A stretch of DNA of 41,022 nucleotides from the IMG/VR virus record IMGVR_UViG_3300002772_000001, positions 1-41,022 of that record. One strand, 5' to 3'. A program made the position numbers and the translations under genes. Below the pieces are notes generated by a model. The model saw only the letters and a program-made list of their open reading frames with translations. It was not told where the DNA came from and searched no databases. The DNA is from a virus. The first letter of the stretch is position 1, and every line of letters begins with the position of its first letter. Shown piece by piece: positions 6,899 to 41,022 of this stretch.

Positions 6899-7918
6899 TC
6901 AGAATGAAATCTTGGGCGGGGCATATTGGCCGGCATCGGGAATTGGCGGTATATAGTTGCTGCCGTAGGGGTTGTTAATGTTGCTGTTCCATTGACTCTG
7001 ACCGTAAGCGTTGCCGATACCCTGCATGGCCTGCTGGCCAAAGTTCGACCACGCGTTAGCGCTGCCATAGATGCCTTGTGCGCGGGCCTGTCCGGCGTTC
7101 TGCAGATTGGCGCCCACCTGGTTGGCCGTATTCATGCCTAGCTGACCTGTCGTGTTGGCGCTGGTCTGCGCCATGCCGCTAAGCGAGGCGAGCCGGTTCA
7201 TGTATGGCGTATAGCCCTACTGGTCGGCGTAGTTCTGGCCGTATTGCGTCAGTGCCTTGAGCGTAGCTCCGGAGTTCAAGCCGCCGCGTGCGGCAGCGCT
7301 TGCCTGTACGGCCTTGTTGCCTTCATCCAGACCGAACTGGTAGCCCGGCGCGGCACGGAATGCAGAGAACGCATCCTGCTACGCTTGCGAGCCACTCACG
7401 GATGGATTCGACCCACCGCCAAGCGTTATGGGCGCTCCGGTTTCATGACCCACTGCGCCAACGCCGCCAGACCCCATGGAGGCGGAAATGTCGCCATTGA
7501 TCTTGTTCTGATCGGAGCCGCTCCAATAGCCTGTATTCCACTGCTTCTGATGCGCGGCCAGCTCGCTATCCCACGCCTGCCGATAGGCCGGGTTGCTCGA
7601 ATAGAGTTGCGCATTGGCAACGGGTATGCCCTGATCGTTGGTGGATACATATGGCAAGCCACCGCCTGACCCGGAATAGGGCTGACCCGACGAGCCGTTA
7701 CCTATGCCCAGCATATTCATGTACTGGTTCAGGCCAACCAAGCCGGCCTGACGAAACGGCGCCTAATCCTGACGCGACTGGTTGAACATCTGAAGCTGCG
7801 TCTGATTGGCCTGGTTGGCCGCGCCAGCCTGCGTATTTGCGGCGCTTTGGGCTGCATCTGACTACTAGCTTGCCGAATAAAGGCCAACTACGGCTGCGGC
7901 TGCGACTCCCCAAGGCAT
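6899..7918 (-). CDS. Gln/Asn/Gly-rich virion protein (339 aa; 5 in-frame TAG including an adjacent TAG-TAG pair)
   Basis: ATG 7918 preceded by AGGAGAG. TAG at 7865, 7862, 7763, 7379 and 7217. Listed fragments 7379-7741 and 6899-7201 are in frame. Stop TGA 6899-6901. Confidence 0.75.
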
Positions 7919-7919
7919 G

Positions 7920-8093
7920 TCAGCTCTCCTTCACAACGTTTCGGCGTATGTCGATCATCTAAAGCGCCATGTCACGGCATTCCTCAATCGTCAATTTTCG
8001 ATGTTCCTTGGTGCCCGCGCCCGGATGTACCTGCATTGAAGCCAAGGATGCGAAATACATATCAAACGGAATGCGTTCGTCCTCGTGCAGCAT
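7920..8093 (-). CDS. Small hypothetical protein (57 aa; 1 in-frame TAG)
   Basis: ATG 8093 overlaps the upstream TAA (TAATG). TAG at 7959-7961. Read-through ends at TGA 7920-7922, just before the next ATG (7918). Confidence 0.45.
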
Positions 8094-8674
8094 TAGTCGT
8101 TTCTCCGAACACAGATAATCAAGGTAATCCGTTCTTCGTCACTGTTATTAGTGACCCAGTGCAGTAGCGAGTTGTCGAACGTATAAATATCGCCAGGCTC
8201 CGGGCTGAGGCTTTCATCCTCGAAGCAAAATGCCTGATCCTTGTTCCCTTTGACCTGCACGGCGAACTTTTCGTAATGCCTCGCGTGCCAGCCAGTATCT
8301 ATGTGCGGCTTTACCCCGCCACCCGGAGGAATGCGGGTGATGAGTACGCCACCAAGCTGTTTTCCGCCAACTCGGCGCACCACATGACGGGCCAGCGACC
8401 ACGCGGCAGGAATCTTCCCGATTACGGGATACCAAACTGACGTATGGGCATCGTTGAAGGATTCGCGGTCGCCCTTGAAGTTGGCCCAGTCGTTGTACCG
8501 CACCCAAATGTCATCTATCGACTTGTGGGGCGTGTCGTATGCTTCCGTTCGCTGCGTATGTGTGTTCCACACTTCCGGGTGGTCGGCGATCTGTGAAACA
8601 AGCCGGCTCACGTCAAGCCCTGAACCAAGTCTACGAATAGACATGCCTTGCGTCATCGGCTCACAGGTTGTCAT
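8093..8674 (-). CDS. Aspartyl/asparaginyl beta-hydroxylase-like cupin/2OG-Fe(II) oxygenase (193 aa, TAG-free)
   Basis: Uninterrupted ORF. Metal-site context KPHIDTGWHARH ... LLHWVTN and overall family resemblance, by eye. Stop TAA. Confidence 0.6.
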   Translation of the reverse strand: MTTCEPMTQGMSIRRLGSGLDVSRLVSQIADHPEVWNTHTQRTEAYDTPHKSIDDIWVRYNDWANFKGDRESFNDAHTSVWYPVIGKIPAAWSLARHVVRRVGGKQLGGVLITRIPPGGGVKPHIDTGWHARHYEKFAVQVKGNKDQAFCFEDESLSPEPGDIYTFDNSLLHWVTNNSDEERITLIICVRRND

Positions 8675-9143
8675 TGATCGTCTTCGGGTTGAACCGTGGC
8701 AGCGGGGCGATCTGCGCGGCGCCCGACAAGCTATTGTTCTGCGCTACTTGCGTCTGCGCGTTCACCGTGTCGGTGATGGCAGAAACTTGCTGACCCGCTG
8801 CCTGCAGCCCGGTCTGCACGTCAAGCACCTGCGTCTAAGTGTTGGCCGTCTGCGTGATGACTTGAGGCACGGTTGGCGCATCAATGCCGCCGAGCCGGGT
8901 TTCCGCAATTTCCATAAAGAATTTGTACCAAACCGGCATCATGCGGCCAGAATCATCAAGCACGGCAACCTGCGCCCCGGGGAGCCAATTAACCCGTTTG
9001 CGAAGGCTGTTCGAACCGGCCCACGTTACCCTTCCGGTGGCTGAGCCAATGCCCGCCACTGTGCGGGCTGACGCCGTGAAGGAGATGAATGGCGAGCTGG
9101 CACTGGATACGCCAGCGACCGTTGCGCATGATGCCGTTGCCAT
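8661..9143 (-). CDS. Virion-associated hypothetical protein (160 aa; 1 in-frame TAG)
   Basis: ATG 9143 overlaps the upstream TAA. TAG at 8835-8837 in the context TQTANT[TAG]TQVLDVQTG. Stop TGA 8661-8663 overlaps the next gene's start region. Confidence 0.65.
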
Positions 9144-9721
9144 TAGTCAGGCAGGCCCAGTGTCCAACTTCCGATGACGTGTGACCCGGCAGACGGATAG
9201 CTCTGCTCGAGAATGGAGGACACTACCAGTGCCGAGCCGCCGCCCGTTGTCACACTGATCGGCGCTCCGCCACTGGTAGCGGCCACTTGAAACGTGTCCG
9301 TGGTGACGTTTACTGCAAAATAGGTCGTGCCCTCGGTCAGCCCCGTTGGCATCGTGTCACCATAGATCACGATAGTGCCATTCGTTGAAAAGCCGTGACC
9401 GGGACAGGTGAATACGCCCGTAGTGACGTTGGCGATGAACTCTTTCGGATTGCTTGCGTTCGGCGCATAGCCGACGTAGGTTGCGCCGTTCCACAATCCA
9501 AGCCATTTGACGGTTGTTCCGGCTGGAATAGCAAAAGTCACTGCCGAGGATAGCGTGCGAACTGCGCCTGAGGATGCACCGAAGGTCGCGGCCATCTTGG
9601 CATACGTGCCGCCGGTAACCTCATTGGCTCCGGTGGCTCCGGGGAATGCCGTGTGCGCACTGATCTAGGTGATCGTCAGTGCGTTGAGCATGGTGTCTTT
9701 TGAGGCGGTGACAAAGCTCAT
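9143..9721 (-). CDS. Virion-associated hypothetical protein (192 aa; 1 in-frame TAG)
   Basis: ATG 9721 overlaps the upstream TGA (ATGA). TAG at 9665-9667 (codon 19). The N-terminus MSFVTASKDTMLNALTIT[TAG]ISAHTAFPGATGANEV continues into listed ORF 9143-9595. Confidence 0.7.
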
Positions 9722-11130
9722 TTGCTGCTCGCTGTAGCGTCAAGGTTGGCACCGTACACCGCGATCTTCACGGGTTCGGTTGTGCGGATGCGGTAGACGC
9801 GGCGGCGGGACAATCCAAGGCGCCTAGCCACGCCACGGTTGCGATAGGCGCCAATCTGGCCTATGCGAACTTCGCGACTGTTACTGAAGTTTCGGCAACC
9901 GTCATCCGACCAGTCCAGCATCCATAGAGGATCGGCACCCGGTGTTGGCGGCGTGATCCCGTCAAGTCCAACGCCCATCTCGGCAATGATTTCAAGCCGG
10001 CTATGTCGGAGCCACTTATTCTCGTTCTCGATAACGGCCCACGCCCTCTCACGGGTGATCGAATTTCCGTTATCGGTGAAGGCATTCAGGTCCAGCACGT
10101 ATAGGTTGCCGCTGACGTAATCGCCGAGCACGTGCTGGCCGCCGAGGAACATGTAGGCGTTTCCGCGGTGCTGTTCCTGTGCGCCCGTGATTGGGTTGCG
10201 ATAGGTCAGCTGCGTCCAGCGACGCGACGCGGCATCAAACGCCCACGTGGCATACCCAGGAAACGTCAGCACATAGAGCGTATGCCCGTTCTGCTGGTAG
10301 CAGTAGCCCCATGCGCCAGAAACGTCGCCATAGCCCGCGATGGCGTTTTCCAGAGCATGCGTGGAGATGCGCGTCGGGCTGTACCCTTGGGCCATATAAA
10401 CCATGCCGATGCCGCTATCGTTCTGACTGAGCCAAAACACGGTGGAGTCGGACTTGGCGGGGGAGTATTTGGCCGCGCAGCCATATTCCATGATGGCGGT
10501 TCGCACAAAGACGAGATCCTTGTCGCCCGAAGTCTGCGCAATCTCCGTTGTCGTGGTGTTGAACAGCCACAGCTCGCGGTGATCAGATAGCACCGAAACG
10601 ATGGGGTCAGGATTAGCCTCGGAACTGGCAAAGTTCAGTGCATCAAGGGTGGTTGCATCGCCGATGTTCGTCCAGCCGTAAGTGCCATTCGTGTTGGGGA
10701 AGATGATGTAACTGTCTTGATACGTGCCCTGCGCTGTCGTCGGAGCGCCCGTAACCGACACATAGGCCAGTGTCGAGAAGGTCAGAACATGCCATCCCGC
10801 TGAATGCATGACGGCGAGCTGCGTGTCGTTGTAAACAAGGCTTACACGCCCCGCCCCAGGAACGGCGCCGATCAGCGTTGAAACGCCAGCCGTCGTGACC
10901 TGATATAGCGAAGCACCCGAGACGACCCAGCCAAACCCATTGGCCGTTTCCGCCGCACGGATCGGGCCTGTGCCGATGGTGGACAGCAGCCGCAGACCCG
11001 GCGCTCCGTAGAACATGCCCTCTTCGGACGACCCCGGAGGCGCGCCCTCAAAAAACAGGTTGACCAGCGTCTAGCCGGCCAATGGGAGCGATCGCGACTG
11101 ATAGGCCGCGCCAAGGAAATCAGTCTTCAC
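9718..11130 (-). CDS. Large virion protein, possibly a head-completion/DNA-stabilisation (P22 gp10-type) protein (470 aa; 1 in-frame TAG)
   Basis: GTG 11130 overlaps the upstream TGA (GTGA). TAG at 11071-11073 in AAYQSRSLPLAG[TAG]TLVNLFFEG, then the listed 432-aa ORF. The family assignment is from memory only. Confidence 0.55.
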
Positions 11131-11777
11131 CGAGCAACCTGCGTCAATCGCGAGCCGCGCGTGAAGCGCTGGCGCTCGTTGGACAACGCGGCCATCAGAC
11201 GGCCCGCATATTGAGACTTCCAGAGCGGCAGGCGACCGTCTTCACCGATGAATGGGGCTGACTCGGCCAGCGCGGCATAGAGCCACACATCCGGATAGCG
11301 GTTGAACGCAGCGTTCAGCGTGCCGGAAGAAATGTCGGGCGCCTTCTTGTAATACCGGCCAGCGATGACCGTGCCATCTGTCATTGTCGGGAAGAACAAC
11401 AGGTTCAAGCCCTGCTGCGTGTACTTGCGGGCCGATCCGGAGCCGCCGCCCGCCTTGAGCAAGCGCAACTGGCCTTCTTCGGCGACGTAATCCATCGGGT
11501 AATCGCCCGATACCTGCACGCGGATTAGCTCAAGGCAGTCGGTGGGAAGTGGCGCGACGTTGCCAGTGGCCGTGATGGCGAGCGGCGCCTCCATTTCGGC
11601 ACAGCGCAGCGGCGGAAGTACGCTCTGCACGCCGGTCATGCCGTAATAGACAGCCTGCTCGCCCATGCTGATCAGCAGATCCAGCGTGGACTAGCTCAGG
11701 GCGCCAGCATTCGTGTCGTCGCCGTCGATCATCTTCAGCACGGCGGTACGAAAGTCGGTATAGGTCGTGAAGTTCAT
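11127..11777 (-). CDS. Head-tail connector/completion-type hypothetical protein (216 aa; 1 in-frame TAG)
   Basis: ATG 11777 overlaps the upstream TGA. TAG at 11691-11693 (codon 29). The frame continues into ORF 11127-11666. Confidence 0.65.
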
Positions 11778-12067
11778 CAGACACGGCCCCGTGAGACGCG
11801 GAAGCCCGACAGGGCTGGATCGTTCAACATGCGGTTGGCGTGCACGGGGTTACGGATGAACTCCGCAAAGCTGACGCCATTATCGTTGCAGTATTGCTGG
11901 ATGATGATGTCGGGTATCTTGGCAAGCACCCGCATTTCACTATCGCCCGTCAGGCCGGCGCTCTAAAGCGCCCTGCAATGATCGGCAATAGCATGGAGAT
12001 CATCCATGTTGGCTTCGTAGACGTGAGCCTCATGTGTGGCGCTCACTTCCTCGATACGTGCCCGCAT
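11777..12067 (-). CDS. Small hypothetical head protein (96 aa; 1 in-frame TAG)
   Basis: ATG 12067 with AAGGAG 7 nt upstream. TAG at 11963-11965 (codon 35). Stop TGA 11777-11779 overlaps the next ATG. Confidence 0.65.
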
Positions 12068-12118: not shown

Positions 12119-13090
12119 TCAGCTCAGGTCAAGAATCGACGCGAGCGGCTTCTCGTCACGCACCACCAGCGTGACTTCGGTACGAATCTGCCACTGCTTG
12201 GCATCGCCCGTGGTCGCCATCTGCTCCGACTCGAACGGGCGCAACTGACCGAGGGCCAGCTTGTCCGTGTCGATCAGGTAGGCCGAAGCCGTCAAGCCCA
12301 GTCCGCCCGACGCCATCACGCGGTCAGGAACCACCTTCGTGACGCCGAAGTCATGGCCGTAGAAGGTGAACGCGGTGTTCAGCACCAAGCTGCCATCCGC
12401 CTTGCTGGACGGCACGGTCTGCTGCCGGGTCACGTTGCCGGTCAGTGCTGATACCTTCTACTTCTGCGCCGGAGGAACCAGCAGCATGGTCGAGTCACCA
12501 CCATTCTGGTACGCGGCCAGCACCGCAGCCTTCACCAGAACGTCGGAGATGGCACGGGCCGTACCTGCCACCGGAGCCGTGTTGGTGACCGGGTTCGGAG
12601 CCACGCCAGCGCCCGCACCCACGCTGGCGTTCAGCGCAATGAAGCCGTACAGGCCGCGCATCTGGCCTGCAACGCCCGAAGTGCCAGTGACGGCAGCGCC
12701 GTTGCCGATGGCTGCCGCCTCGATGTCGCGACGAAGCTCAACCATCTTCTTCGCTTTCAAGCGATTGATTTCGGACGATCGGCCGTATTTCTTCACCGTC
12801 TCGGCGGTGTTGGACACGCTCAAGGTGTCCTGGAAGATCTGCGTGCGGTTGTTCAGCGGGCCGGGCTGGGTCTGCGCGGCGTAAGCGGCGTCGGCGCCTT
12901 CAATCGCAGCATTCGCGGCGTTGGTGGCGCGGTAGCTGTCACGGGTCCACTCGTGGAACACGTTCGACACCTTGATGCGGTCGATGGCACTGACCAGCGG
13001 GGTGTCCTACGGGTTGAAGTTGTAGATGCGGTCTTCCACATCCTCCGCCACACGGACGATGGACGGGGTAATCAGGGTGTTCGCAGTCAT
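12119..13090 (-). CDS. Major capsid protein (323 aa; 2 in-frame TAG)
   Basis: ATG 13090 with AAGGAAAAG upstream. TAG at 13007-13009 (NFNP[TAG]DTPLVSAI) and 12458-12460 (PPAQK[TAG]KVSALTG). These join ORFs 12458-12970 and 12119-12433. Lies downstream of the scaffold and is followed by a terminator hairpin. Stop TGA. Confidence 0.75.
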
Positions 13091-13099
13091 GTCTTTTCC

Positions 13100-14026
13100 T
13101 TAACCTAGCAAGTTGCCGAGGGATTGAAGGCTCTGTTTCGCATCGAAGCGTTTGAACGCCTCGGACTTGCTCACAGTCGCCCTGTTGGGTTGGTTTGCCG
13201 CCGATGGCTTAGCCACCCTTGGCAGTTGCGCAACGGGCTTGAGCGCGGCTGTTTTAGCCTGCAACTCGTCGTAGGCTTTTGCCTTAGCGGCAATCTCCCA
13301 CAAGCCTTTCTGCACATAACCGATGTCTGCGGTCTTGGGGCTGATGCCAGCCTTGCCAAGATATGCCGCCAGATCGTCGATTGTTTTCTCACCAAAACCC
13401 GGCAGGGTGTCCTTCAGCGCCTTCTCGGTAGCATCGGCTTGCTGAGCAATCCACGCTTGGCGTTGCCGCTGCGTTTCCTGCTGAACATTCGCGATGGCCT
13501 CATGTGCTGCGTTCAACTGGCCCTTGCGTGTTTCGTATTGCTCCTTCTGTGCGATGTACAGCCCCACGTCCTGTGAGGCCAATTCAACAGACGGTGGTGC
13601 GCCGATCTGCGATTCCGCAAACTTGGCGAACGCGTTCAGACGGTCAAGGGTCGCCGTCAACGCCCTTTCATTGTGCTGGCGGTATTCGTCGGCCTGTGCC
13701 TGCAGCGCCTCGACGTGCCTGCGCTCCTCCGCGACAGCCATCGTTTTCTGCGAGTAGTCGAAGCCCTTCTGAGCCAGCTCGATAACCTCGGACTTCTTGA
13801 GCGGAACGTCCTTGCCATCATGCTTAAGCACAATGGTGGCATCGTCGCCCTTGTCGCCCTCGGCCTATTCCTGACCCTCTTCGGTTTCCTCCCGCTCCTC
13901 GGCTTCCTCGCCTTCCTATTCCTGCTCAAGCTCCGGCTCAGCTTCCTGATCCGCGCCGTCCATCAGACCAGCCAGACCCGAAAGCGTATCGCCCTCGGCT
14001 GGCTGCATTTCTGCGTCACCTGCCAT
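13100..14026 (-). CDS. Scaffolding protein (308 aa; 2 in-frame TAG)
   Basis: ATG 14026. Acidic N-terminus with TAG at 13916-13918 (ELEQE[TAG]EGEE) and 13865-13867 (EEGQE[TAG]AEGD). Then a long Q/A/E-rich helical ORF (13100-13831). Sits between portal and capsid. Stop TAA. Confidence 0.7.
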
Positions 14027-14164: not shown

Positions 14165-14398
14165 TTACCCGATCGCCGCATTGATGACGTTGATCAGGCT
14201 CGTTACTGCCTCCTCTGGTGTCTTGCCAATTCCGCAGAACTCGCCGCTAGCCTCACCAAGCCGCACCAGGCCGGATTCGTTACCTATTTCAGCGCACCAA
14301 CTCGGCGCGGATTGGTCGCCGTCGAACGATAGGGCGAACTCCTTGTCGCGCGGCTTGATTTCAATGGCAAGTTCAATAAGTTTTGACAGGTTACTCAT
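14165..14398 (-). CDS. Hypothetical protein (77 aa, TAG-free)
   Basis: Complete ORF. ATG 14398 overlaps the upstream TGA (ATGA). Stop TAA. Confidence 0.55.
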   Translation of the reverse strand: MSNLSKLIELAIEIKPRDKEFALSFDGDQSAPSWCAEIGNESGLVRLGEASGEFCGIGKTPEEAVTSLINVINAAIG

Positions 14399-14676
14399 CG
14401 CCGAAACACTCCCTTGAACCGTTCAGCGCGTGATTGCTCAGCCTCGATGGCCTTGCTCTGCATCTTGCCGGTGATCATCGTCTGTTCCAGCACGTCACCA
14501 AGCCGTTTATGGCACTGGATCATGCGCCAGAGGTGATCGCGCTTCGCCTCGTCCGCTTCGATCTGCCAGCGAGCCAGGATTTCATCCTTGAGCTGCGCCA
14601 TCGTCTCGATATAGACGCGGTTTGACAGTACATCGGCGGCGAGTTGACCGCGTTCAAGCTCTTCCTATGGGGTCAT
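14395..14676 (-). CDS. Hypothetical protein (93 aa; TAG at codon 4)
   Basis: ATG 14676 overlaps TGA 14673-14675 of the read-through portal (ATGA). TAG at 14665-14667. The frame continues into ORF 14395-14601. Confidence 0.6.
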
Positions 14677-16904
14677 TCATTCTCGCCCTATTGTTCGCCC
14701 TTCGTGGCGGCCTGCAATTCGGCAATCTGCTGCTGCAACTGCGCAATCTGCTCGTTCTGCTGAGCGTCGATGTCCTTGTGCGCCATATCGTGCGCGGTGG
14801 CGACGCCGTGAATATGCGTGTCGTGCGCTTTGCGCTGAACATCAGCGGCCTTGACCCCGATATTTCCCTGATCGGCCTGCGCCTTGACTCCGAGTGAGGC
14901 CATCGCATGCTGGTGTTTCTGATCCGCCTCACGCGCCCGCTGCTGCAATTCCATCTGCTTGAGGTACGTGTCCGACTGCTGCTGCGCGCTCATCTGCTTG
15001 AGCTGGCCGTTTTCTTGACCGAGTTGTTCCAGCTGCTGCTTGGTCTGCGCCATTTCCTGCTGTTGCTGCTGTTGCTGAGCCTGATACGCCTGCGGGTTCG
15101 GCGGCATACCTGACGGCTGCGGACTAACGAAGCGTTCCGGTTCCTTGAACTCGGCGGCCTGCACGTACAGTTTGACGGTTTCGGCCACCTGAGCTGGCGT
15201 GACGATGCCGAACGGGGCAGCTTGCATCTGCACCTGCATCAGGCCCATGACGCGCGCGGCAAGTTGTTCCTTGCTGCCCGTTCCCAAGCCGACCTTGATC
15301 GTAGTGTTGAACTGGTCTTTCCACTCGGACGGATTCACAGCGACCCACGACCCGTTGACCTGCATCTGTTCGGTCTTGTCCTGGAACTGGATCGCCAGCT
15401 TCAGCATCTTGCTGAAAAGCCCCTTCATGCCGACCGCGAACATGCGCGACATCAGCTCAAGGCGCATGTCTGCCTTTTGCGTGATGATGCTGACGCCGGT
15501 CGCGGTCTTGTTTAGCGAGTTGGCGTCGGTGCCCTGCGAATAGCGCGTGAAGCCGGTGCGGTTCTCTTTCCATCCCTCAAGCCATTCGTTGAACTCGTAG
15601 GCGGGAGCGCCGAGAGCGGGCTGTACGATGGGCTGAATGGCGGTGTTGGCCGGACCGTGGCCGCGCACCGCGCCACCAGGCCGATTCTCCAGCCAGTCGT
15701 CCATGTTCACGCCAGCATCCAGGTTGATGTAGGTCCGCTGATTGACGGACAGCATCATATTGTCTTGGATAGCGCGGATGACGTTGGTGCGCAGCTTCTG
15801 TGGCTGCAACGCCATGTCGGCAGGGCAGTCGCCGAAGAACGCATGCGGACGAGGAATGGGGCATATCCACACGAACGGATGGCCGTCGCACTTTTCGTAC
15901 TCGACCAGCTTCTGCTCGATCATGTGGCAGCACAGCCATTCGGCAATGCCGTCGCCGTCCGCGTCCAGCTTGATATAGACCTCGCTGCACTGATACAGCT
16001 TGTGGCTTTCGTGCGGCTCAACAGCCGTGTAGTCGCTGTTCAGGCCAAGCTAGGCAAGCGTTTCGCTGTCGTAGCGCGAGTTGCTGCCGGCCTGCCCGAT
16101 GTCGGTCAGGTCGTAACCCTCTTCCTCTAGCTCAAACTTTCGCTTCGGGTAGACGTGGGCAATCATCGCCGGATCGTCACCCCAGCGCGCATTCGCATCC
16201 ACGCGCACTTCGTGAGGGGCGCATGCGGCCACCTTCACCGCCATGCGTTTATCTTCCTTCTTGAGCGATACCGTCAGCGTCGGTGCGGCGGGCTGCTGCG
16301 GTAGCGGCTGTCCATCCGGGCCATACTGCGCTGGCATGGTCTGTGACGGCTCAACCTGAGGTTCGTCGTCAAGCTCCCAGCCCGACTACTGAAGCATCGC
16401 CACCTGCTCCTGCGTGATGCCGGAATAGGTAGTTTGCAGATCCTCGAATTCCTCCTCGGCCCACACCTTGACGAAGCCGACCTTCTGGATCAGTGAATCC
16501 TTGAACCAGTCGTACATGATGCCTACACCGTCGTTGCGGGTGTAGAACAGGTAATTAACGTAAGCCGTGGCGAGCTGGGCAACCTGATCCTGATCGGGTC
16601 GGCGCGCCTGGAACTCGACCGCCTCGTCATCCGTCACAAACGGCTTCATGATCTGCGGCAACATCGCCTCGATCGTGTCAGCCACGTCGGTCGCTACGAA
16701 ATCGCTGCGGTCGTCAATCTCTGGCGGGGCTAGTTCGCCAGTAGCTTCGGCGTTGTAATATTCAAGGTTGCGAAGACGCTGCTAGGCAATCTCGGTGCCC
16801 GGACCGCCCATGCTGTTTTCCAGCGCCATGCGGCAGGCAAGCTCGACCTCAGCATCCGTCATCTTGGCGTGCTTGATTGACGCCTTCTTGGACGTGTATG
16901 CCAT
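14673..16904 (-). CDS. Portal protein (743 aa; 4 in-frame TAG)
   Basis: ATG 16904 overlaps the terL TAA. Fragments 16386-16685, 16050-16337 and 14688-15923 share one frame. TAG at 16782, 16386, 16050 and 14688. Motifs RLRNLEYYNAE, DADGDGIAEW and YSQGTDANSLNKTATG, plus a poly-Q coiled-coil tail. Real stop TGA 14673-14675. Confidence 0.85.
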
Positions 16905-18154
16905 TAGCGGGTAAGCCTGCGGTAGCTGATTGGTTGCATATCTTCGTTAACCATCTTGGGCGCCACACTTGCCATGTAGCGGAACATATCGGCGCCGTGA
17001 CTCCACTCGTCGTGGACGGGTGCGCCAGGCTCGCCCGTTGAAACAGGAACGCCGCGCTTGTACCGCTTGAGGCACTGAATCAGCCGCTCGCACTTGAGCT
17101 TGTCGATGTAGAGCTGGCCGAACGCCATGCGTGCCGCCTTAATGCCTGTCTCGACCGGCTGAATCGGAACGATTCCCACATCCCAGCCAAGCTCGCGCAT
17201 GATCTGCTCGGCACTCTTGCCGGTCTTGTAGTCACCGTGGGCGCCGTCGTGAGGTAGCCAGAGACGGCCCCAGTTGAGGTTCTTCTGTTTCAGCTCAGCC
17301 GAACACCAGTCGAGCGTCTTGTGGTCAACCTCGATGTACTTGATCAGCCGAAGCGACGAGATATGCCGCTGGCATAGGCCAATCGCCATCTTGTCGTTCC
17401 AGCCCAAGTCGAAAATGACGTGAACCTTGAGCGCCGGGTCATACGGGAATAGGCCAATGCGCCCCTCTTCCTGCGCCCTGGCAATCTCGTCAGCGTAGAT
17501 CGCGCCAGTCACGGCAGGCTTGCAGCGTCCTTCCCATATGTTGTCGTAGTCAGCCCTTGGTGTCGTGGCGAGCGCGTGTTGCCGCTCAGCCTCAAGCACA
17601 TCAGGGAACCACGGGTTGTCCGCGTAATTGATCTGCACCACCACGGAATCAGGGGGCGGATTCTCGATGAAACGGACGTAGGTTTCGTCGGTGTCCAGCT
17701 CGGGGTTTAGCGTGATGGTGATTCGCGACCCGTCTTTGCGGATCGTCGGGATAAGAATGTCCCACGATCGTTTGCTGATCGCCTGGGCTTCCTCGGCCCA
17801 AACGTCATCAACACCCTCGAACGACTTGATCGACTCGGCGGTCTGGTCGCTTAGGCCGGAAAATAGAAACTCGGTTCCGTTCGCGCCCTTGATGATGTTC
17901 TGCTGGACTTCGTAGAACGCGCCAAGGCCCATGGATTGAATCTGGTCACTCAGGAGCTTGTGCACGGAATCGCGGATGGACTTCTGCACCTCGCGAGTGC
18001 ACAGAAATCGTCTTTTCGACTAAGCGCCCCGGATCAGGTAGGAGCGAGCAACACCCCACGACTTAGCACCACCGCGGCCACCATGCAGGATCGTGTATCG
18101 CTGTGGGCCAAACAAGCACTGCAGCTTGGCGGGGAACTCAATCTGGCTTGACAA
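16904..18154 (-). CDS. terL: Terminase large subunit (about 416 aa; 1 in-frame TAG; start uncertain)
   Basis: Walker A in ILHGGRGGAKSWG, upstream of TAG 18020-18022, then LCTREVQKSIRDSVHKLL and the listed 361-aa ORF with nuclease-domain motifs (WSHGADMFRY). The only in-frame start after the upstream TGA (18158-18160) is TTG 18154. Confidence 0.85.
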
Positions 18155-18404
18155 AGGTCACCGTCAGGCTGGTCTTGAGTGGGTTGTCAGGATCGCCAGA
18201 CACCGTCATCGGCAGAACCTTGCCAACCAGCGTAAGGAACGCGTTCGGGTTGGTCTGCGCCTAGGTCAGCAGATACTTGGCTCCGCCCGCCTTGTCGAGT
18301 GCCGTCAGGATCATGGCCTTTACGTCAGCCGTCACCTTATTCGGTACGCCTTTTGGCCTACCCTTGCCTGCATTTCCCCTATTCGCGCCTACTTTGGGTT
18401 CCAC
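18138..18404 (-). CDS. terS: Terminase small subunit-like protein (88 aa; 1 in-frame TAG)
   Basis: GTG 18404 with GAGGAAAG 4-6 nt upstream. Motif GRPKGVPNK...ALDKAGGAKYLLT[TAG]AQTNPNAFLTLVGKVLP is of the kind seen in small terminases. TAG at 18261-18263. Stop TGA 18138-18140 overlaps terL. Confidence 0.6.
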
Positions 18405-18499
18405 GGACTTTCCTCGGGCTGCTTACGCGTCACCCATCATTGCTACGGATGCTTCTATCTCAGACCACGGTATGTGGCTTCAGTCATCGTCTTCACTGT

Positions 18500-18570
18500 T
18501 GGCGGGGGCGGACGGAATCGAACCGTCATAAGGCGGGTTAGAGCCGCTGTCAGCACCCAAGCGCGCCCCA
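18500..18570 (-). tRNA. Amber-suppressor tRNA, anticodon CUA (reads UAG); Gln/Trp-like acceptor stem, encoded CCA
   Basis: Minus-strand sequence UGGGGCG-CGCUUGGGUGCUGAC-AGCGG-CUCUAAC-CCGCC-UUAU-GACGG-UUCGAUU-CCGUC-CGCCCCC-G-CCA. The T arm is canonical (GGUUCGAUUCC). The anticodon stem has 4 bp plus an A.C pair. The 7-nt loop has U33, CUA (plus-strand 18539-18541) and A37. The acceptor stem has 6 GC pairs plus U1.C72, and the discriminator is G73. The D region is only 15 nt and I could not draw a canonical D stem. Confidence 0.8.
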
Positions 18571-18639
18571 CTAAAGATCGCATCCCAATGGCTGGCAAAT
18601 GTCGCCTGGTCCACGCTGAACGGGCGTGGCGCTGATCCC

Positions 18640-18759
18640 TTACCGTTCATACGGCTTCGGCACAGTCGGCTTAACCGGATTCGTCGTCTTGACCTTGTAC
18701 GTCAGCCAGCTATAGGCGCAGACGATGGCGAGGAGGAGTAGCAGGGCGATGGCGATCAT
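18640..18759 (-). CDS. Small membrane protein (39 aa)
   Basis: ATG 18759 overlaps the Rz1 TGA (ATGA). Sequence MIAIALLLLLAIVCAYSWLTYKV... has one TM segment. Stop TAA 18640-18642. Confidence 0.4.
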   Translation of the reverse strand: MIAIALLLLLAIVCAYSWLTYKVKTTNPVKPTVPKPYER

Positions 18760-19028
18760 GGCTGCAGCCCCTTTATCCTTGCCAGCTTGTCGTTTGAAGC
18801 GCCTAGGCATGCCTTGAGATGTATCGCGTACTCGACCAGTGAGCCGTTCGTCAGCTCGCTAGGCAACGCAACCGTGCAAACCTTTACTAGCTCGGCAGGC
18901 AAGGCAACGTAGACCGGAACCTTGACCTCGACCGTCTCAGTCCTGATTGCCGGTTTCGCGCAAGCGGCCAGCGACAACAGCAGGGACGCGAGTATTAGCC
19001 CACGCTTTGACAGTCGGCTCGCGCTCAT
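18756..19028 (-). CDS. Rz1: o-spanin (Rz1-like outer-membrane lipoprotein, 90 aa)
   Basis: Lipobox LSLAAC after a signal sequence. The start lies inside the 3' end of the i-spanin gene in another frame (overlapped architecture). TAG-free. Confidence 0.7.
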   Translation of the reverse strand: MSASRLSKRGLILASLLLSLAACAKPAIRTETVEVKVPVYVALPAELVKVCTVALPSELTNGSLVEYAIHLKACLGASNDKLARIKGLQP

Positions 19029-19374
19029 AAGTGGCCTGCAATGACTTGATGGACTTCTGTGCGCCGGCTTGGCGCTTGGTATCGCCCTGTGCGCTCAACC
19101 GCGCCTGCTTGTTAGCTTCGGGCTGATTGGCCTTGCACGTTCTGGCCCATTCGGCGTTCGCACCCTGTAGCTTTGCGATCGTTGCCAGATTGGTTTTCTG
19201 CGCACCCGCGAAGGTGCTGACTGCTGACTGCAGCGTGACGGCACTCGCCCGGTAATGCCTGACCTCAACATGCTGGACAGCCGCAACCATCAACAGCAGC
19301 CCAGCCAGTGCGGCAAAGATCGTGGCGCGGATGCCGCCGAGTAGTTCAATCAGGCCCATACGGCGAACCTGCAT
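18937..19374 (-). CDS. Rz: i-spanin (Rz-like; N-terminal TMD plus coiled coil)
   Basis: MQVRRMGLIELLGGIRATIFAALAGLLLMVAAV, then a Q/A/K-rich helical region. Start is ATG 19374 or ATG 19359; the longer listed ORF start is unlikely. TAG-free. Confidence 0.7.
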   Translation of the reverse strand: MQVRRMGLIELLGGIRATIFAALAGLLLMVAAVQHVEVRHYRASAVTLQSAVSTFAGAQKTNLATIAKLQGANAEWARTCKANQPEANKQARLSAQGDTKRQAGAQKSIKSLQATYEREPTVKAWANTRVPAVVAGRLRETGNQD

Positions 19375-19457
19375 ACCGCATAGGCACCGCCGATCAGAAT
19401 CCACAGCTTCGGGTTGAGAATCGTGTAGACGATCCGCTCTTTCCGCGTGTAAATCAT
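19350..19457 (-). CDS. Possible small membrane peptide (35 aa)
   Basis: ATG 19457 overlaps the protease TGA (ATGA). Sequence MIYTRKERIVYTILNPKLWILIGGAYAVCRFAVWA. Stop TGA 19350-19352. Confidence 0.3.
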   Translation of the reverse strand: MIYTRKERIVYTILNPKLWILIGGAYAVCRFAVWA

Positions 19458-20032
19458 CGCCCCGCCTCATCAAACTGCGTCTTGGTGAACATCAGTGGGA
19501 AAGCTCCCATCACCTTCATGAATCCGTTCGGGCTGATCTGCAGATCCAGCACTGATGTCACGGCGACTAGCTGGCCGTCCATGCTGAAAAGGCCACTGCC
19601 GCTATCGCCGAAGTAGCCGTTGTAGTCGATGACGTACAGCGTCTGGCCGTTGATGACGGCATAGCCCGACACATATCCATGCCGGTACATGTCGCGCAAC
19701 CTGCCGGGGTTGCCGAGGTTGAACACTTCCTCGCCCTGGTACACATCGGGCCTCACTTCCACCCAATGTGTATAGGTTGCGGTTACGCGGACGATCGCAT
19801 GGTCACGATGGTCAAGCTCAACCCGTAGCACTTCAACGGGAACGCTATCGACCGCGAGATTCTTTGTGCCGGTCAGGCAGTGTTCGGCGGTCAGGATCGC
19901 ATGCGGTCCAATCACCGTTCCGCTACAGGTGCCATCATCCATTCCCAGCAGAACGGTGGCGTTGTGCACTCGCGCAATCGGGCTGACGCAGCTCGCCAGC
20001 CCCACACACAGTAGGGCTGCGAGGATGCGCAT
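19454..20032 (-). CDS. Trypsin-like (S1) serine protease with lipoprotein signal peptide (192 aa)
   Basis: Lipobox LLCVGLASC. Catalytic His context LTAEHC. Ser context GDSGSGLF. TAG-free. Stop TGA. Confidence 0.7.
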   Translation of the reverse strand: MRILAALLCVGLASCVSPIARVHNATVLLGMDDGTCSGTVIGPHAILTAEHCLTGTKNLAVDSVPVEVLRVELDHRDHAIVRVTATYTHWVEVRPDVYQGEEVFNLGNPGRLRDMYRHGYVSGYAVINGQTLYVIDYNGYFGDSGSGLFSMDGQLVAVTSVLDLQISPNGFMKVMGAFPLMFTKTQFDEAGR

Positions 20033-20035
20033 GGG

Positions 20036-20302
20036 TTAGCAGCGAATGGTTAGCGGGTTAATGGGGTCGCAAGCAATGTATGCAGGACGCTGGTATGTTT
20101 CAAATCGGCGCATCGCATCGCAAGGCACGTCACATCGAGCTGGCGCAGCAGTCATTGGAATCACTCGCTGCCCATAGCCCGCCTGAATGGCGCCGCAGTG
20201 GCTACATTTAGGTGGCGGCGGCGGCGCTATGCTTGACCATGCACCTTGGTGAGCCATGACATTCCCGCCACAAATAGAGCAGGCGCCAATACAGGTGAGC
20301 AT
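20036..20302 (-). CDS. Cys-rich hypothetical protein (88 aa)
   Basis: Complete ORF with CxxC-type pairs (CSICGG, CSHCG). Confidence 0.45.
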   Translation of the reverse strand: MLTCIGACSICGGNVMAHQGAWSSIAPPPPPKCSHCGAIQAGYGQRVIPMTAAPARCDVPCDAMRRFETYQRPAYIACDPINPLTIRC

Positions 20303-20305
20303 GGT

Positions 20306-20515
20306 TTAGCTCGCCTTGGCTTCGTATGGAGCTTCTTTGACGATCAGATAGCGTGTGCTGGTGATGCCAGCCTGCGTCATCGCGGTCGGGTAATCGCAGC
20401 GCAGCGTCTCGGCCAATTTGTCTGACTCGCCTTCCGGGTAGCCCTTATCCCATACCTCGACGATGACCTTCCAGTCAGAAGTGTCGGCATTCTCGATGCG
20501 GATTTGCTTGGTCAT
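20306..20515 (-). CDS. Hypothetical protein (69 aa)
   Basis: Complete ORF, tightly spaced with its neighbours. Confidence 0.5.
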   Translation of the reverse strand: MTKQIRIENADTSDWKVIVEVWDKGYPEGESDKLAETLRCDYPTAMTQAGITSTRYLIVKEAPYEAKAS

Positions 20516-20602
20516 TGGTTAGGCGTCCGTAGACTTCTTGGTAACGGCGGAATCAGCGACGTTTGAGCCGAAGTACAGGCCCAGCGTCCATGTTAAATAG
20601 CT

Positions 20603-21325
20603 TTACAAAAGCGTTTGTATGCGACAACTCTTTGATAGATTATCTTTCGCCCAAAGCGGCCGGAGATTCGTTAGCGCCCACGCGCGGCGCAATTCGGGGT
20701 CGTCCGATCCGGTAATCGTGAAGCTCGCCAGCGGAATGATGTGATCGACATGCCATTTGCCGTAGTTGTCCCAGCTCATGCCCTTAGCGAATTGGCGTTC
20801 CAGATGGGCGCGAAGTTCATCCTTCCCGTACCAAAGAAGATCAATCCATCGTCTGCCACACTTCTTGTCGCGCAAAACACCCCATATCTGACGCCCCATG
20901 CGCCTAGCTGGGCCGCGCATGCTGGCGGACTTTCGCTTGCGTAATAGTTCGGCGTTGCCCGGTGCCGACTTCCATTTATCCAAACTTTTACGCTGGGACG
21001 CTTTGGACTTTTCCGGGTTAGCGGATCGCCATTTAGACGCCCTATCCTTTACGGTACCCTTATTTTCCAGATACCACTTTTGAAGTCTTTCTTTGGCTTT
21101 TTCACGATTTCTAGCATGCCATTCTCGGCTAATAGCCAAGTCTCTTTCTCGGCGCCCTGGATTATTGAGCTGTATCTCCATCGCCCTTGTGCGATCACAT
21201 ATACGGCAGATTGAGTTATATCCGTCCGAATTTCGCGCCTTCCTGGTGAACCCCTCAAGGGGCTTTTCCAAACCGCACCGCGTGCAGGATTTCGTCACTT
21301 TGTCATTCACGGCGGCGTCTCGCAC
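20603..21325 (-). CDS. HNH endonuclease (homing-endonuclease-like, 240 aa)
   Basis: C-terminal motif WHVDHIIPL...NLRPLWAKDNLSK. N-terminal CxxC...CxxC. Locally lower GC than its flanks. Inserted between the endolysin and the rest of the lysis cassette. Confidence 0.8.
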   Translation of the reverse strand: MRDAAVNDKVTKSCTRCGLEKPLEGFTRKARNSDGYNSICRICDRTRAMEIQLNNPGRRERDLAISREWHARNREKAKERLQKWYLENKGTVKDRASKWRSANPEKSKASQRKSLDKWKSAPGNAELLRKRKSASMRGPARRMGRQIWGVLRDKKCGRRWIDLLWYGKDELRAHLERQFAKGMSWDNYGKWHVDHIIPLASFTITGSDDPELRRAWALTNLRPLWAKDNLSKSCRIQTLL

Positions 21326-21771
21326 AATTTGCGTTCGGCAGCGCGGCGCTTGACCAGCCCATTTAGCTGACGGCCTTGGCTATACGTCCACCTGCTCAGC
21401 TCGCCGCAGAACGGCAGTCCAGCGTTAAGTTTGCGCATCAGTCCGGAATGACAGGCGGCGGTCGCGCCAACGTTGTATTCCCAGCTCAGGATGGCAGCAG
21501 CTTGGTTGCGCGTGATCGGCCGCTGAATACACGGCTCAACCTTGGCCCACTCGATGGCTAGGCGCTTGTCGAGCCGCTGCAGGCATTCATCCATCGTGGC
21601 ATGCATACCCAGCCTGATATCCGGGCCTGTCTCGCCAGCGCACAACGTCGCGGTGCCATTCACATCGTCGTAGGTGTGCGGGACAACGCCCTCGTAGTGC
21701 GCAACCAATGGCGGCACGATCATCAGCAACGCTCCGATGGCTATGCCGGATCTGCCCTTAGGCGCCGGCAT
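21307..21771 (-). CDS. SAR endolysin, T4/P21-type lysozyme (GH24), 154 aa
   Basis: N-terminal weakly hydrophobic Gly/Ala-rich segment GIAIGALLMIVPPLVA, followed by the catalytic E-D-T spacing (YEGVVPHTYDDVNGTATLCAGET). Confidence 0.8.
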   Translation of the reverse strand: MPAPKGRSGIAIGALLMIVPPLVAHYEGVVPHTYDDVNGTATLCAGETGPDIRLGMHATMDECLQRLDKRLAIEWAKVEPCIQRPITRNQAAAILSWEYNVGATAACHSGLMRKLNAGLPFCGELSRWTYSQGRQLNGLVKRRAAERKLCETPP

Positions 21772-21985
21772 CGGGCGGGTAATCCGCGTCGTGACGGTGC
21801 TTGAATGCGCCCCACTTCAATTTTGCCCACTGATACAGTCGGTAGATTTGCTGAATAATCACGAACACCGAGCAGATCGCCGCCAGCTGATAGCTCAACG
21901 TGTCCCAGCGATAGCCCGCGAGGGATGTGACCGCCACACCCACCGGGTAACTGACTTTCAAGACGTCCAAGACACTTTCCCGCAT
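21758..21985 (-). CDS. Holin (probably a pinholin, 75 aa, two TMDs)
   Basis: Two hydrophobic segments and a charged C-terminus. Lies immediately upstream of, and overlapping, the SAR endolysin. Confidence 0.6.
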   Translation of the reverse strand: MRESVLDVLKVSYPVGVAVTSLAGYRWDTLSYQLAAICSVFVIIQQIYRLYQWAKLKWGAFKHRHDADYPPDAGA

Positions 21986-22026
21986 TGGCGTATTCCTGTG
22001 ATGGCCGCCAGTGCGGGCCTGTGGGG

Positions 22027-22338
22027 TTATTTGATGGGTGTCACTTTGCCGGGCTTGCGGCTGGGGCAGCGCATGGAGCCGGTGGCGTTGTCCTCACCCG
22101 TGATCGCGCCGGTCTTGTACTCGACGAACAGGGCGTTGAAGCCGTGCGTATCGGCATACCAAGCGGTGCCGTGCGGGAAGATGACCTGACCCTTTTCGCA
22201 CTCGACGTATTCGGACTCGCCGTCAAGCTCGACCTCGATTTCGCCAAGGTCGATTTCTTCGTCCTCGGGTTCGTCGGTCATGGCTGCCTCGTTGAATTGG
22301 TCCGGGATAGCGCACCACGGCTGCGTTGACTGGCTCAC
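22027..22338 (-). CDS. Acidic hypothetical protein (103 aa), first gene after the late leader
   Basis: Complete ORF. Stop TAA 22027-22029. Confidence 0.5.
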   Translation of the reverse strand: MSQSTQPWCAIPDQFNEAAMTDEPEDEEIDLGEIEVELDGESEYVECEKGQVIFPHGTAWYADTHGFNALFVEYKTGAITGEDNATGSMRCPSRKPGKVTPIK

Positions 22339-25048: not shown

Positions 25049-25345
25049 CTATTTCGTGCAAGCCATCCTTGAAAACCTTGCACTATCTTTGTTGCCATCA
25101 CTGGCAAGGTAATAGACGTTCCTCCGACTCACTCCGAGTCGCTCCGCCGTAACATCCGGCCCCAGCGTCGGCAGCAACTTCGCCGCCTCAATAGCTTTGC
25201 GGTCACGGTTTGCGCCCTCGTCAATGGCTATCATGTTATTTATGGTTTCCGCGCTGAACTTCTCGCAGCGAGCAACTGACCAGCCGCAATCGTGCAGCAG
25301 CTCGGCCAGCTCACCCAACTTCGCATGTGCGGCTTGGCTAATCAT
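25049..25345 (-). CDS. HTH-containing hypothetical protein (98 aa); terminates at TAG
   Basis: C-terminal HTH-like TAERLGVSRRNVYYL. The stop codon is TAG (25049-25051). Confidence 0.55.
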   Translation of the reverse strand: MISQAAHAKLGELAELLHDCGWSVARCEKFSAETINNMIAIDEGANRDRKAIEAAKLLPTLGPDVTAERLGVSRRNVYYLASDGNKDSARFSRMACTK

Positions 25346-25348
25346 GTT

Positions 25349-30101: not shown

Positions 30102-30394
30102 ACCGCCTCCCGCAAATGCTCAGGCACCCACAGGTCGCGCATGGATTCCCAGCTAACTAGGGTGTTGGAGTCGGTGAGGGGTTCGAGCTGGTCGGGAGAC
30201 CAATTTCTCCAGCATTCACCGTCATGAGACTCTGGCGAAATATCCAAGCCGTAGCCGATGCAATTCAGGCCCGTATCCGCATTCACGCCTTCACGGACAC
30301 TAATGATCACCCCGGCCTTGCCAACGTCTTTACGGCCGAGTTCGGAGTTCGCCCACTTAATCCGCACCCTCTGCCCAATGTAGAGGGTAGTCAT
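30098..30394 (-). CDS. Hypothetical protein (98 aa)
   Basis: Complete ORF with ATGA couplings. Confidence 0.5.
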   Translation of the reverse strand: MTTLYIGQRVRIKWANSELGRKDVGKAGVIISVREGVNADTGLNCIGYGLDISPESHDGECWRNWSPDQLEPLTDSNTLVSWESMRDLWVPEHLREAV

Positions 30395-30915
30395 GCCGCC
30401 CTCCGGAGCATCAGCGCGGCGTTTTCAGCCTCAAGAACGGCGATGCGTGTAAGTAGGGCCGGGATCGTCTCTTTAACTACCGGAATGCACTCATAGGCTT
30501 TCTTCGCCACTACGGCGTCATCAAGAGACGCATAAACCCCCAAGTAGACCCTCTTGCCATCACGCGCAGACGAATAGACGACAAACTTCCCGCTCCGCTT
30601 GTTGCGGGTGATGTTTTCCACACCTGTATTACTCCGGGGAGAGGTGTGCGTGTTTCTCGAATTCACCGAATACGTCACTGAGCGAAGATTGCAGCGACGG
30701 TTGTCCAGCGTGTTCCCGTTGATGTGGTCAACGACAAGCCCATGCTCACCACACAGGAGGCGATGCATCCAATTACGAGTGCCGTCGATTTGTCCGACCG
30801 CGTAGACGTAACCATTGCGGGTGGTATTCGCTAGCCAGCGAAACTGCGACAAATACTCGAAGTCCTCATCATCAACGAGGACTGAGAAACCCTTGTTCAT
30901 TTGGATGGTTTTCAT
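30391..30915 (-). CDS. HNH endonuclease with AP2-type DNA-binding domain (174 aa)
   Basis: HRLL......VDHINGNTLDNRRCNLR, followed by an AP2-like GV......GKF......DGKRVYLGVY.S.DDA..A. Lower GC than its flanks. Confidence 0.75.
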   Translation of the reverse strand: MKTIQMNKGFSVLVDDEDFEYLSQFRWLANTTRNGYVYAVGQIDGTRNWMHRLLCGEHGLVVDHINGNTLDNRRCNLRSVTYSVNSRNTHTSPRSNTGVENITRNKRSGKFVVYSSARDGKRVYLGVYASLDDAVVAKKAYECIPVVKETIPALLTRIAVLEAENAALMLRRAA

Positions 30916-32481: not shown

Positions 32482-32524
32482 TTACCTTTGGGGTATTGAC
32501 ACAGATATACCTGCGGAGTAACGT
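32482..32524 (+). promoter_or_regulatory. Early-left promoter with an overlapping operator (OL-like)
   Basis: Operator TTACCTTTGGGGTAT (32482-32496) has the same consensus as the OR sites. TTGACA at 32496-32501, 17-nt spacer, TAACGT at 32519-32524. GGAGGA RBS before ATG 32554. Confidence 0.55.
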
Positions 32525-32553
32525 TCACTCCATCGCCACCCAAACGGGTCGGC

Positions 32554-34275: not shown

Positions 34276-34356
34276 CCACGCCCGAATCATCCCCATCGTC
34301 GCCGGATTGCCGGCGAATGATCCTGATTTTCTTCCTCCTGCTTTGGAGTAGATCGC

Positions 34357-41006: not shown

Positions 41007-41022
41007 AGCGGCCCCCTCCTAA
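40984..41022 (+). repeat. attR core: second copy of the tRNA-Arg(CCU) 5' half; the tRNA may continue beyond the window
   Basis: Identical to 1-39. The window ends in the anticodon loop, so whether the tRNA is complete cannot be judged. Confidence 0.85.

Follow-up and report, generated by a model that had tools for sequence, protein, structure and literature searches.

A temperate phage with a compact tRNA(CUA) gene and a predicted reading of TAG as glutamine in its packaging and virion genes

The IMG/VR virus record IMGVR_UViG_3300002772_000001 (positions 1 to 41,022; the window, meaning the whole stretch of 41,022 nucleotides [nt] that was analysed) is a complete temperate podovirus-like phage or prophage of ∼41 kb, with an integrase and boundaries formed by a 39-nt repeat. 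It is predicted to be a genetic code 15 phage, in which TAG specifies glutamine (Gln), and to carry its own suppressor tRNA, a 71-nt gene with a CUA anticodon (18500 to 18570, minus strand). The packaging and virion genes, from the small terminase candidate terS to the tail fibre, would need TAG decoding, whereas the lysogeny, early, replication, and lysis genes appear readable with the standard code. Overall, it is highly probable that the phage tRNA reads TAG as Gln, and that virion production depends on it while lysogeny and lysis do not.

The two codes are evident in the distribution of TAG codons. The 15 recognisable late genes each contain at least one in-frame TAG, for a total of 36, with no in-frame TGA or TAA; all late genes terminate with TGA or TAA, and with TAG taken as a sense codon, the late region becomes a continuous run of long open reading frames (ORFs). 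There are no sense TAGs in the 5,185 codons of 29 ORFs for early, lysogeny, and lysis functions, compared with 34 in 4,964 late codons (Fisher p = 2.6e-11); the tail fibre is omitted from this test and its ORF set, in which the stop codons are 33 TGA, 9 TAA, and 2 TAG (the tail fibre adds one TGA). Matches to Pfam and PHROG families span the TAGs (Terminase_3, SU10_portal, SU10_MCP, SU10_adaptor, SLT, and Hc3), and the portal protein aligns with 582 of 593 positions of its Pfam model (6e-169) across three of them. TAG contributes ∼10% of the Gln codons in the late genes (36, versus 339 CAG plus CAA). The nucleotide following TAG (+4) has no clear deviation from background, and stop-to-stop ORF totals under alternative codes do not discriminate between codes in this window, which has a guanine-plus-cytosine (GC) content of 58.3%. 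The initial annotation of this DNA placed a UAG decoder at the boundary between TAG-free and TAG-requiring genes, and this location is supported by the TAG-spanning domains, the Fisher comparison, and the co-occurrence in relatives described below. Its further statements, that every recognisable packaging or virion gene needs TAG, that the lysis genes upstream of the tRNA have no in-frame TAG, and that the late region contains two TAG-free inserts (14398-14165 and 8674-8093), are confirmed. Two standard-code genes seem to stop at TAG, an early ORF (25049-25348, minus strand) and the integrase (39969-41006, plus strand), and an active suppressor would extend both by readthrough.

The only tRNA that ARAGORN finds in the whole window occupies 18500-18570 of the minus strand and has the anticodon CTA, bearing out the strand and anticodon originally proposed. 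The program names the gene 'Pyl', which is its default name for a CUA anticodon and nothing more. The arms described earlier are all present in the ARAGORN drawing and in the sequence: an acceptor stem with U1.C72 followed by six G-C/C-G pairs, G73, and an encoded CCA; an anticodon arm (AGCGG-CUCUAAC-CCGCC) topped by a mismatched A.C pair; a T arm (GACGG-UUCGAUU-CCGUC) with a canonical T loop; and a variable loop of 4 nt. The acceptor and anticodon stems are only 15 nt apart, such that the D arm is rudimentary, with at most two or three pairs. When seven canonical tRNA(CUA) genes of 74-75 nt from related phages are used to build a covariance model, with the window sequence left out, the model matches 18500-18570 with 58.1 bits (E ∼9e-12) and has no second match in the window. 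The same 71-nt architecture is recovered in the related loci L003, L015, L028, L102, and L105. In the covariation test, using five distinct sequences of this family (the sixth, L105, turned up later), 93% of cells are paired and seven pairs have compensatory double changes, which fall in the acceptor, anticodon, and T stems; slid controls have 33-51% paired. The 3,171 nt that were read of this locus in a second metagenome contig, which include the tRNA, are 100% identical to the window, and assembly error is therefore unlikely. The 71-nt tRNA is thus real and structurally constrained. It departs from a canonical cloverleaf in having neither a D stem of 3-4 bp nor a D loop of 7-11 nt, with the acceptor, anticodon, and T arms present and covarying. 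The minimum-energy fold of the single sequence is not a cloverleaf and is uninformative (z = -0.38), and an exact-pattern search of viral contigs for the 3' half of the window tRNA gave zero matches. Some 71-nt members have non-canonical T loops (CGCAAUU and UCCGAUU). The defective D arm goes beyond what was first noticed, as do the Gln identity and the ORF running through the tRNA that are described below.

The tRNA and the in-frame TAGs also occur together in relatives of this phage. Loci were collected around homologues of the portal, terL, and a small ORF overlapping the tRNA from metagenomes, IMG/VR, and genomes, giving ∼100 related loci; in the scan of genome contigs for the portal, a single query sequence gave no match and an alignment-based query gave 12 loci. 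In-frame TAG is present in terL only where a tRNA(CUA), identified by ARAGORN or the covariance model, lies within 1.8 kb upstream, as it does at each locus with in-frame TAG in its late genes, and in-frame TGA or TAA is never present in terL of the relatives. The tRNA(CUA) is absent from loci without in-frame TAG, with the exception of L024-L027 (IMG/VR, 65% GC), which have a canonical 74-nt tRNA(CUA) upstream of terL and only 0-2 TAGs in the aligned late genes; these may represent an early or a reverted stage of recoding. In the recoded relatives, TAG is ∼0.5% of late codons, and a tally of per-locus rows gives 4 TAGs in ∼7,650 codons of early and lysis homologues. Several TAG positions are common to more than one relative. 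The relatives range from 54 to 65% GC, and their suppressors are 71, 74, 75, 87, 90, 104, or 106 nt long with a constant acceptor end and genomic position. In L003 and L015, the tRNA anticodon stem is 6 bp long, the variable loop is 3 nt, and the anticodon loop reads CUCUAAA. The long-form suppressors (87-106 nt; L001 425-530, L002 8099-8202, L005 999-1104, L012 5322-5411, and L019 323-409) have very long variable-arm or insert regions; those of L001, L002, and L005 are missed by ARAGORN, and the L001 anticodon loop (UACUAGC) has A instead of U preceding the anticodon.

Several comparisons indicate that TAG is most probably read as glutamine. In an alignment of 120 portal homologues, Q dominates two of the three TAG columns (43/106 and 98/118 residues) against a Q background of 8.6%. 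When all late genes are compared with ∼95 related loci by tblastn, Q is the most frequent residue in 17 of the 32 TAG columns, and it has the best mean BLOSUM62 score at these columns (1.75), with E the runner-up (0.88); E and K are the next commonest residues. In the reverse test, TAG makes up 169 of 172 in-frame stops of the relatives, and 71 of these TAG positions are Q in the window, with a Q background of 6.9%. The tRNA points to the same amino acid, as its ends (UGGGG...CCCC(C/A)GCCA) agree with those of Escherichia coli glnV/glnW, and a comparison by eye shows glnV to share most D-arm bases with the canonical 74-nt suppressor of sister phage L024. Identity elements for Gln include the 1-72 and 3-70 pairs, the discriminator, U35, and the 10-25 pair, which is contacted by glutaminyl-tRNA synthetase (GlnRS), and amber suppressors derived from other tRNAs tend toward glutaminylation (PMC9976931). 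The acceptor determinants are all present in the window tRNA (unpaired U1.C72, G2-C71, G3-C70, and G73), as is U35, and like any amber suppressor, it has A at position 36. Among the ORFs examined, none is long enough for a synthetase or a release factor, and none matches such a family.

The TAGs are concentrated near the gene starts. The first TAG precedes codon 50 in 12 of the 15 late genes, compared with 4.9 expected (p < 5e-5) when TAGs are placed at random among each gene's own Gln codons; the mean relative TAG position is 0.31, and the 5' bias persists without the portal gene. Across the clade, 22-23% of the Gln codons in the first two gene deciles are TAG, compared with 3-4% in the last, with TAG positions varying between relatives.

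A second feature of the locus is a 56-amino-acid (aa) ORF (18650-18480, minus strand; MNGKGSAPRPFSVDQATFASHWDAIFS...NSEDDD*) that contains the entire tRNA gene in frame. It has a 23-residue N-terminal core (KGSxPRPxSVDxxTFAxNWDxIF) that is also conserved in standard-code relatives without the tRNA, and which has the signature of a coding sequence, with third-position entropy of 33.0 versus 16.3 and 15.7 at positions 1 and 2 (29 distinct sequences). ORFs running through the tRNA are seen in the window and in L001-L006, L009, L012, L015, L016, L019, L028, L032, L102, L105, and L106, and gene callers have predicted these tRNA-spanning ORFs. In 14 of 15 tRNA-bearing types, the same frame is used at the tRNA 3' end despite tRNA lengths that differ modulo 3, with the frame kept across tRNAs of 71, 75, 87, 90, 104, and 106 nt by compensating shifts at the junctions; the used frame is open in 14/14 types, and the other frames in 13/28. 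Past the CCA, the ORF continues into one of two conserved tails. One is ...SEDDD*; the other, IYVDDATGxxVTExWWPGD, occurs in many relatives only directly after CCA, and often with a TAG nine codons past the tRNA. Pfam and PHROGs yield no functional family for this small ORF or for the terS candidate. A tentative and rather speculative reading is that one RNA has two mutually exclusive fates, as mRNA or as excised tRNA, which together with gatekeeper TAGs could make a self-referential translational checkpoint for virion assembly; in some relatives, the tRNA-hosting ORF would then need its own embedded tRNA for its completion.

We infer expression, charging, suppression efficiency, timing, and any regulatory purpose from the sequence, and the following series of steps is proposed. 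The tRNA would be made from the late-gene transcript. Delivery of the decoder by the transcript region that needs it is plausible, because the tRNA is on the same strand and no terminator-like site was found between terS and the lysis genes on this strand; a promoter and terminator scan has nothing above shuffled sequences near the tRNA. Host RNase P and 3' processing enzymes would excise the tRNA, whose CCA is already encoded, and host GlnRS would charge it, given the Gln acceptor determinants and a U35 in the CUA anticodon that favours this enzyme. The charged tRNA would then compete with release factor 1 at UAG. Before the suppressor accumulates, ribosomes are expected to halt at TAGs lying mostly within the first 50 codons and to release only short peptides, such that without the tRNA, the early TAGs would end translation completely and at little cost. 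Virion proteins would be made only once the suppressor has accumulated, and the lysogeny and lysis genes would be independent of it.

Several observations weigh against a functional Gln-inserting suppressor that controls virion production. The promoter scan identifies no promoter-like site adjoining the tRNA, and no phage factor acting against release factor 1 was found, though genes with five to eight TAGs would demand very efficient suppression. The D arm is nearly absent, with two invariant pairs (G9-C18 and C10-G17) that through their invariance across the 71-nt family lie outside the reach of covariation, and a third that forms in some relatives only; the anticodon stem has just four Watson-Crick pairs; and the 10-25 pair contacted by GlnRS is altered and not assignable within the reduced D arm. 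At the gathering threshold, Rfam model RF00005 does not match the window tRNA or any of the 71-nt family, whereas the 74-106-nt relatives are matched; at a permissive threshold there is still no match to the tRNA family, and the best of the clan is tRNA-Sec at 16.1 bits. This miss accords with the 15-nt region, which offers no normal D arm. In L015 and L028, both with 71-nt tRNAs, endolysin and/or peptidase homologues upstream of the tRNA carry TAG, and the TAG-free boundary is therefore not absolute in the clade. Finally, early termination wastes less, and the 5' bias may therefore be a matter of minimising cost and not of regulation.

This last point belongs to a broader alternative in which the recoding is real and its pattern is a neutral ratchet: a supE-like tRNA came first, CAG-to-TAG drift followed in genes expressed when the tRNA is abundant, and selection removes TAG only where failed readthrough is costly, i.e., late in long genes. 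TAG is merely ∼10% of late Gln codons, L024-L027 have the tRNA with 0-2 TAGs, suggesting that the tRNA preceded the TAGs, positions vary among relatives, and cost minimisation predicts the 5' bias equally well. Drift alone, however, is not expected to give so regular a pattern as one early TAG per gene, with all 15 virion genes having TAG, usually before codon 50, none in ∼5,000 early and lysis codons, and the same partition recurring across the clade. A neutral-ratchet or cost-minimisation origin is thus a serious alternative for why the pattern exists, although we regard it as the less favoured one. It is considerably less likely that the 71-nt tRNA is a decayed, non-functional relic with readthrough provided by a host suppressor or a helper phage. 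Such a relic could have the rudimentary D arm, weak anticodon stem, sub-threshold Rfam score, and non-cloverleaf minimum-energy fold seen here, but not readily six distinct sequences with the 71-nt architecture, compensatory changes that preserve three stems in the five tested, a D region that is conserved rather than decaying, and an identical sequence in an independent contig; moreover, it is the sole tRNA in the genome, and each recoded relative has one at the same place.

Decoding of TAG as another amino acid, be it pyrrolysine, glutamate, or lysine, is improbable. The pyrrolysine version draws on the Pyl-like compaction of the 71-nt family, the ARAGORN label, and the L003 and L015 features (6-bp anticodon stem, 3-nt variable loop, and CUCUAAA loop), and E and K are the next commonest residues at TAG columns, but Q is clearly the best fit, and the tRNA-Gln-like acceptor end is common to the canonical 74-75-nt suppressors of sister phages. 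The ORFs examined include none of synthetase length and no synthetase or pyrrolysine-biosynthesis match, the T loop is the canonical UUCGAUU, and 1:72 is unpaired rather than G1:C72. Pyrrolysine was rejected for the lack of pylS/pylBCD among the ORFs examined, the four Watson-Crick anticodon pairs, 4-nt variable loop, and U1.C72 of the window tRNA, and the Gln columns. A dead prophage gathering nonsense mutations, with the tRNA incidental, would account for late genes that are fragmented under the standard code; this reading is effectively refuted by the TAG-only pattern and has a negligible probability, as there are 36 in-frame TAGs versus 0 TGA and 0 TAA, 169/172 TAGs in relatives, conserved protein sequence around the TAGs, several TAG positions shared by relatives, and no frameshifts. 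Suppression of TAG with Gln by the phage tRNA thus remains the preferred reading.

The genome is delimited by direct terminal repeats of 39 nt (GCCCTCGTAGCTCAGTTGGATAGAGCGGCCCCCTCCTAA; positions 1-39, identical to 40984-41022), a probable attachment-site core that by eye looks like a tRNA gene's 5' half, extending to an anticodon loop with CCT. The tyrosine integrase gene (39969-41006, plus strand) has no sense TAG, and its TAG stop codon lies within the terminal repeat. On the minus strand, the order is early and replication genes, lysis genes, a 39-aa membrane peptide, the tRNA, and the late genes. The TAG-free lysis region (18640-22093) codes for a holin candidate (21985-21758), an endolysin (21771-21307), a trypsin-like peptidase (20032-19454), an Rz-like ORF (19491-18937), Rz1/LysC (19094-18756), and the membrane peptide (18759-18640), none with a TAG, as well as two small ORFs. 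A lower-GC stretch between the endolysin and peptidase genes contains a putative HNH endonuclease insert of 240 aa (21325-20603), with an HNH-like motif recognised by eye only. Elsewhere in the window there are HNH_3 Pfam matches at 30391-30942 (minus strand) and 38454-38990 (plus strand, together with an AP2 domain), and the early-left operon includes genes for a DUF7666 protein with a GDSGAATAS-type repeat tract (32500-33303, plus strand) and a long pentapeptide-repeat protein (34327-35148, plus strand).

The late genes that follow the tRNA (18500-18570) and its small ORF (18480-18650) are all on the minus strand and begin with the putative small terminase subunit (18138-18404; one TAG, 18263). 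Its GTG start at 18404 is preceded by a Shine-Dalgarno sequence (GAGGAAAG) and is 95 nt from the tRNA, in agreement with the distance first given; the terS label itself is assigned by position only, as the product is small and basic and its PHROG match (phrog_11043) is a family of unknown function. The large terminase gene (Terminase_3; 16904-18154) has a TTG start at 18154 overlapping the terS stop, and its TAG (18022) is directly after the Walker A motif. The portal gene (SU10_portal; 14673-16904) has four TAGs (16784, 16388, 16052, and 14690) and is followed by an ORF of 93 aa (14395-14676; TAG 14667), a TAG-free inserted ORF of 77 aa and unknown function (14165-14398), and genes for the head scaffolding protein (PHROG; 13100-14026; TAGs 13918 and 13867) and the major capsid protein (SU10_MCP; 12119-13090; TAGs 13009 and 12460). 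Beyond these are an ORF of 96 aa (11777-12067; TAG 11965), the adaptor (SU10_adaptor; 11127-11777; TAG 11693), a head closure/connector Hc3-like protein (PHROG; 9718-11130; TAG 11073), a head-protein-like ORF of 192 aa (PHROG; 9143-9721; TAG 9667), and an ORF of 160 aa (8661-9143; TAG 8837). The second TAG-free insert (8093-8674) codes for an Asp/Arg-hydroxylase-like (cupin/2OG oxygenase) protein with counterparts in L001 and L003; both inserts may be moron-like genes that are expressed without the suppressor. The three ejection or internal proteins are a DNA-ejection-like protein (PHROG; 6899-7918; TAGs 7867, 7864, 7765, 7381, and 7219), an internal virion protein, the only one with an SLT transglycosylase domain (4898-6841; TAGs 6712, 6640, 6616, 6235, and 5548), and an internal/ejection-like protein of 679 aa with eight TAGs (2862-4901; 4655, 4601, 4532, 4130, 3884, 3536, 3446, and 3410). 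The tail fibre/tailspike (438-2501) has TAGs at codons 66 and 102.

The phage is only distantly related to those in culture. A late-region megablast against GenBank phages gives zero matches, and the nearest cultured phage by protein comparison has a portal identity of only 33%. Standard-code homologues are annotated in genomes of Lysobacter, Luteimonas, Pseudoxanthomonas, Aquilutibacter, and Roseateles, and from this sole host clue the hosts are probably Xanthomonadales-like bacteria.

Recoding of TAG to Gln in late genes with suppressor tRNAs has been published for gut phages and prophages, with proteomic proof for the crAss-like phages (bioRxiv 10.1101/2021.08.26.457843; PMC9523058; PMC11210395). 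The published members comprise the crAss-like, Lak, Garnet, and Topaz phages, of which Garnet and Topaz are temperate prophages with TAG-free integrases (bioRxiv 10.1101/2021.08.26.457843). The window phage resembles these code 15 phages in its late genes with TAG as Gln, phage tRNA(CUA), standard-code integrase and early genes, and presumed charging by host GlnRS, and in having close relatives with and without recoding interleaved. However, the gut clades are low in GC and infect Bacteroidota and Firmicutes, with low GC being central to the proposed evolutionary route, whereas this phage has 58% GC. The low-GC signature of Borges et al., depletion of TAG and TGA stops, is not seen, with TGA being the main stop at 58.3% GC. 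The finding of recoding in a high-GC phage therefore weakens the case for low GC as a prerequisite, and it adds high-GC temperate phages, with probable Xanthomonadales-like hosts, to the low-GC gut phages in which TAG-to-Gln recoding was described. A further difference is that the published clades recode lysis genes, some preferentially, whereas here the lysis cassette is wholly TAG-free and only the packaging and virion module is recoded, which argues for a checkpoint on virion production over control of lysis timing. A suppressor can be detected in only 40-52% of code 15 phages (bioRxiv 10.1101/2021.08.26.457843; PMC11210395), and Borges et al. predicted that non-canonical suppressors lie behind this low detection, which they put at 40% of recoded genomes (bioRxiv 10.1101/2021.08.26.457843); a suppressor that is invisible to the standard covariance model helps to explain it. 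That preprint (bioRxiv 10.1101/2021.08.26.457843) makes no mention of a TAG 5' positional bias, of ORF-nested tRNAs, or of this compact tRNA type. A literature search of incomplete coverage, which is weak evidence of absence, likewise gave no account of recoding in high-GC, soil, or Xanthomonadales phages, of ORF-nested tRNAs, or of recoded stops biased to the 5' end.

The Jade-phage 'code change module' described by Borges et al., with a suppressor tRNA and an aminoacyl-tRNA synthetase together with a release factor upstream of the lysis cassette, is similar in placing the decoder directly upstream of the block that needs it and within a standard-code context, although the window has a lone tRNA with no synthetase or release factor among the ORFs examined, and it precedes packaging rather than lysis genes. 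E. coli supE (glnV44) likewise combines a tRNA-Gln body with CUA and inserts Gln at UAG, and shares the acceptor determinants (weak or unpaired 1:72, G2-C71, G3-C70, and G73), but it is a canonical 75-nt cloverleaf with U1-A72, compared with the 71 nt, U1.C72, C38, and absence of a normal D stem in the window tRNA. In the core of tRNA-Pyl (pylT), the D arm is reduced, the anticodon stem is 6 bp long, the variable loop has 3 nt, the T loop is non-canonical, and the first pair is G1:C72. The window tRNA is like it in its CUA, G73, and reduced D arm, and in relatives also in the 6-bp anticodon stem and 3-nt variable loop; it differs in the canonical T loop, the GG in the D loop, the unpaired 1:72, and the Gln-fitting columns, and the likeness is architectural only. 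Two design features open to testing are the concentration of TAGs at 5' ends and the placement of the tRNA in an ORF, and the engineering of orthogonal suppressors is one area in which the compact 71-nt tRNA could be of interest. TAG-to-Gln recoding is thus a known system, and what is distinct in this environmental example is its combination of high GC, a temperate lifestyle, lysis genes that are not recoded, a compact tRNA, TAGs biased to the 5' ends of genes, and nesting of the tRNA within an ORF.

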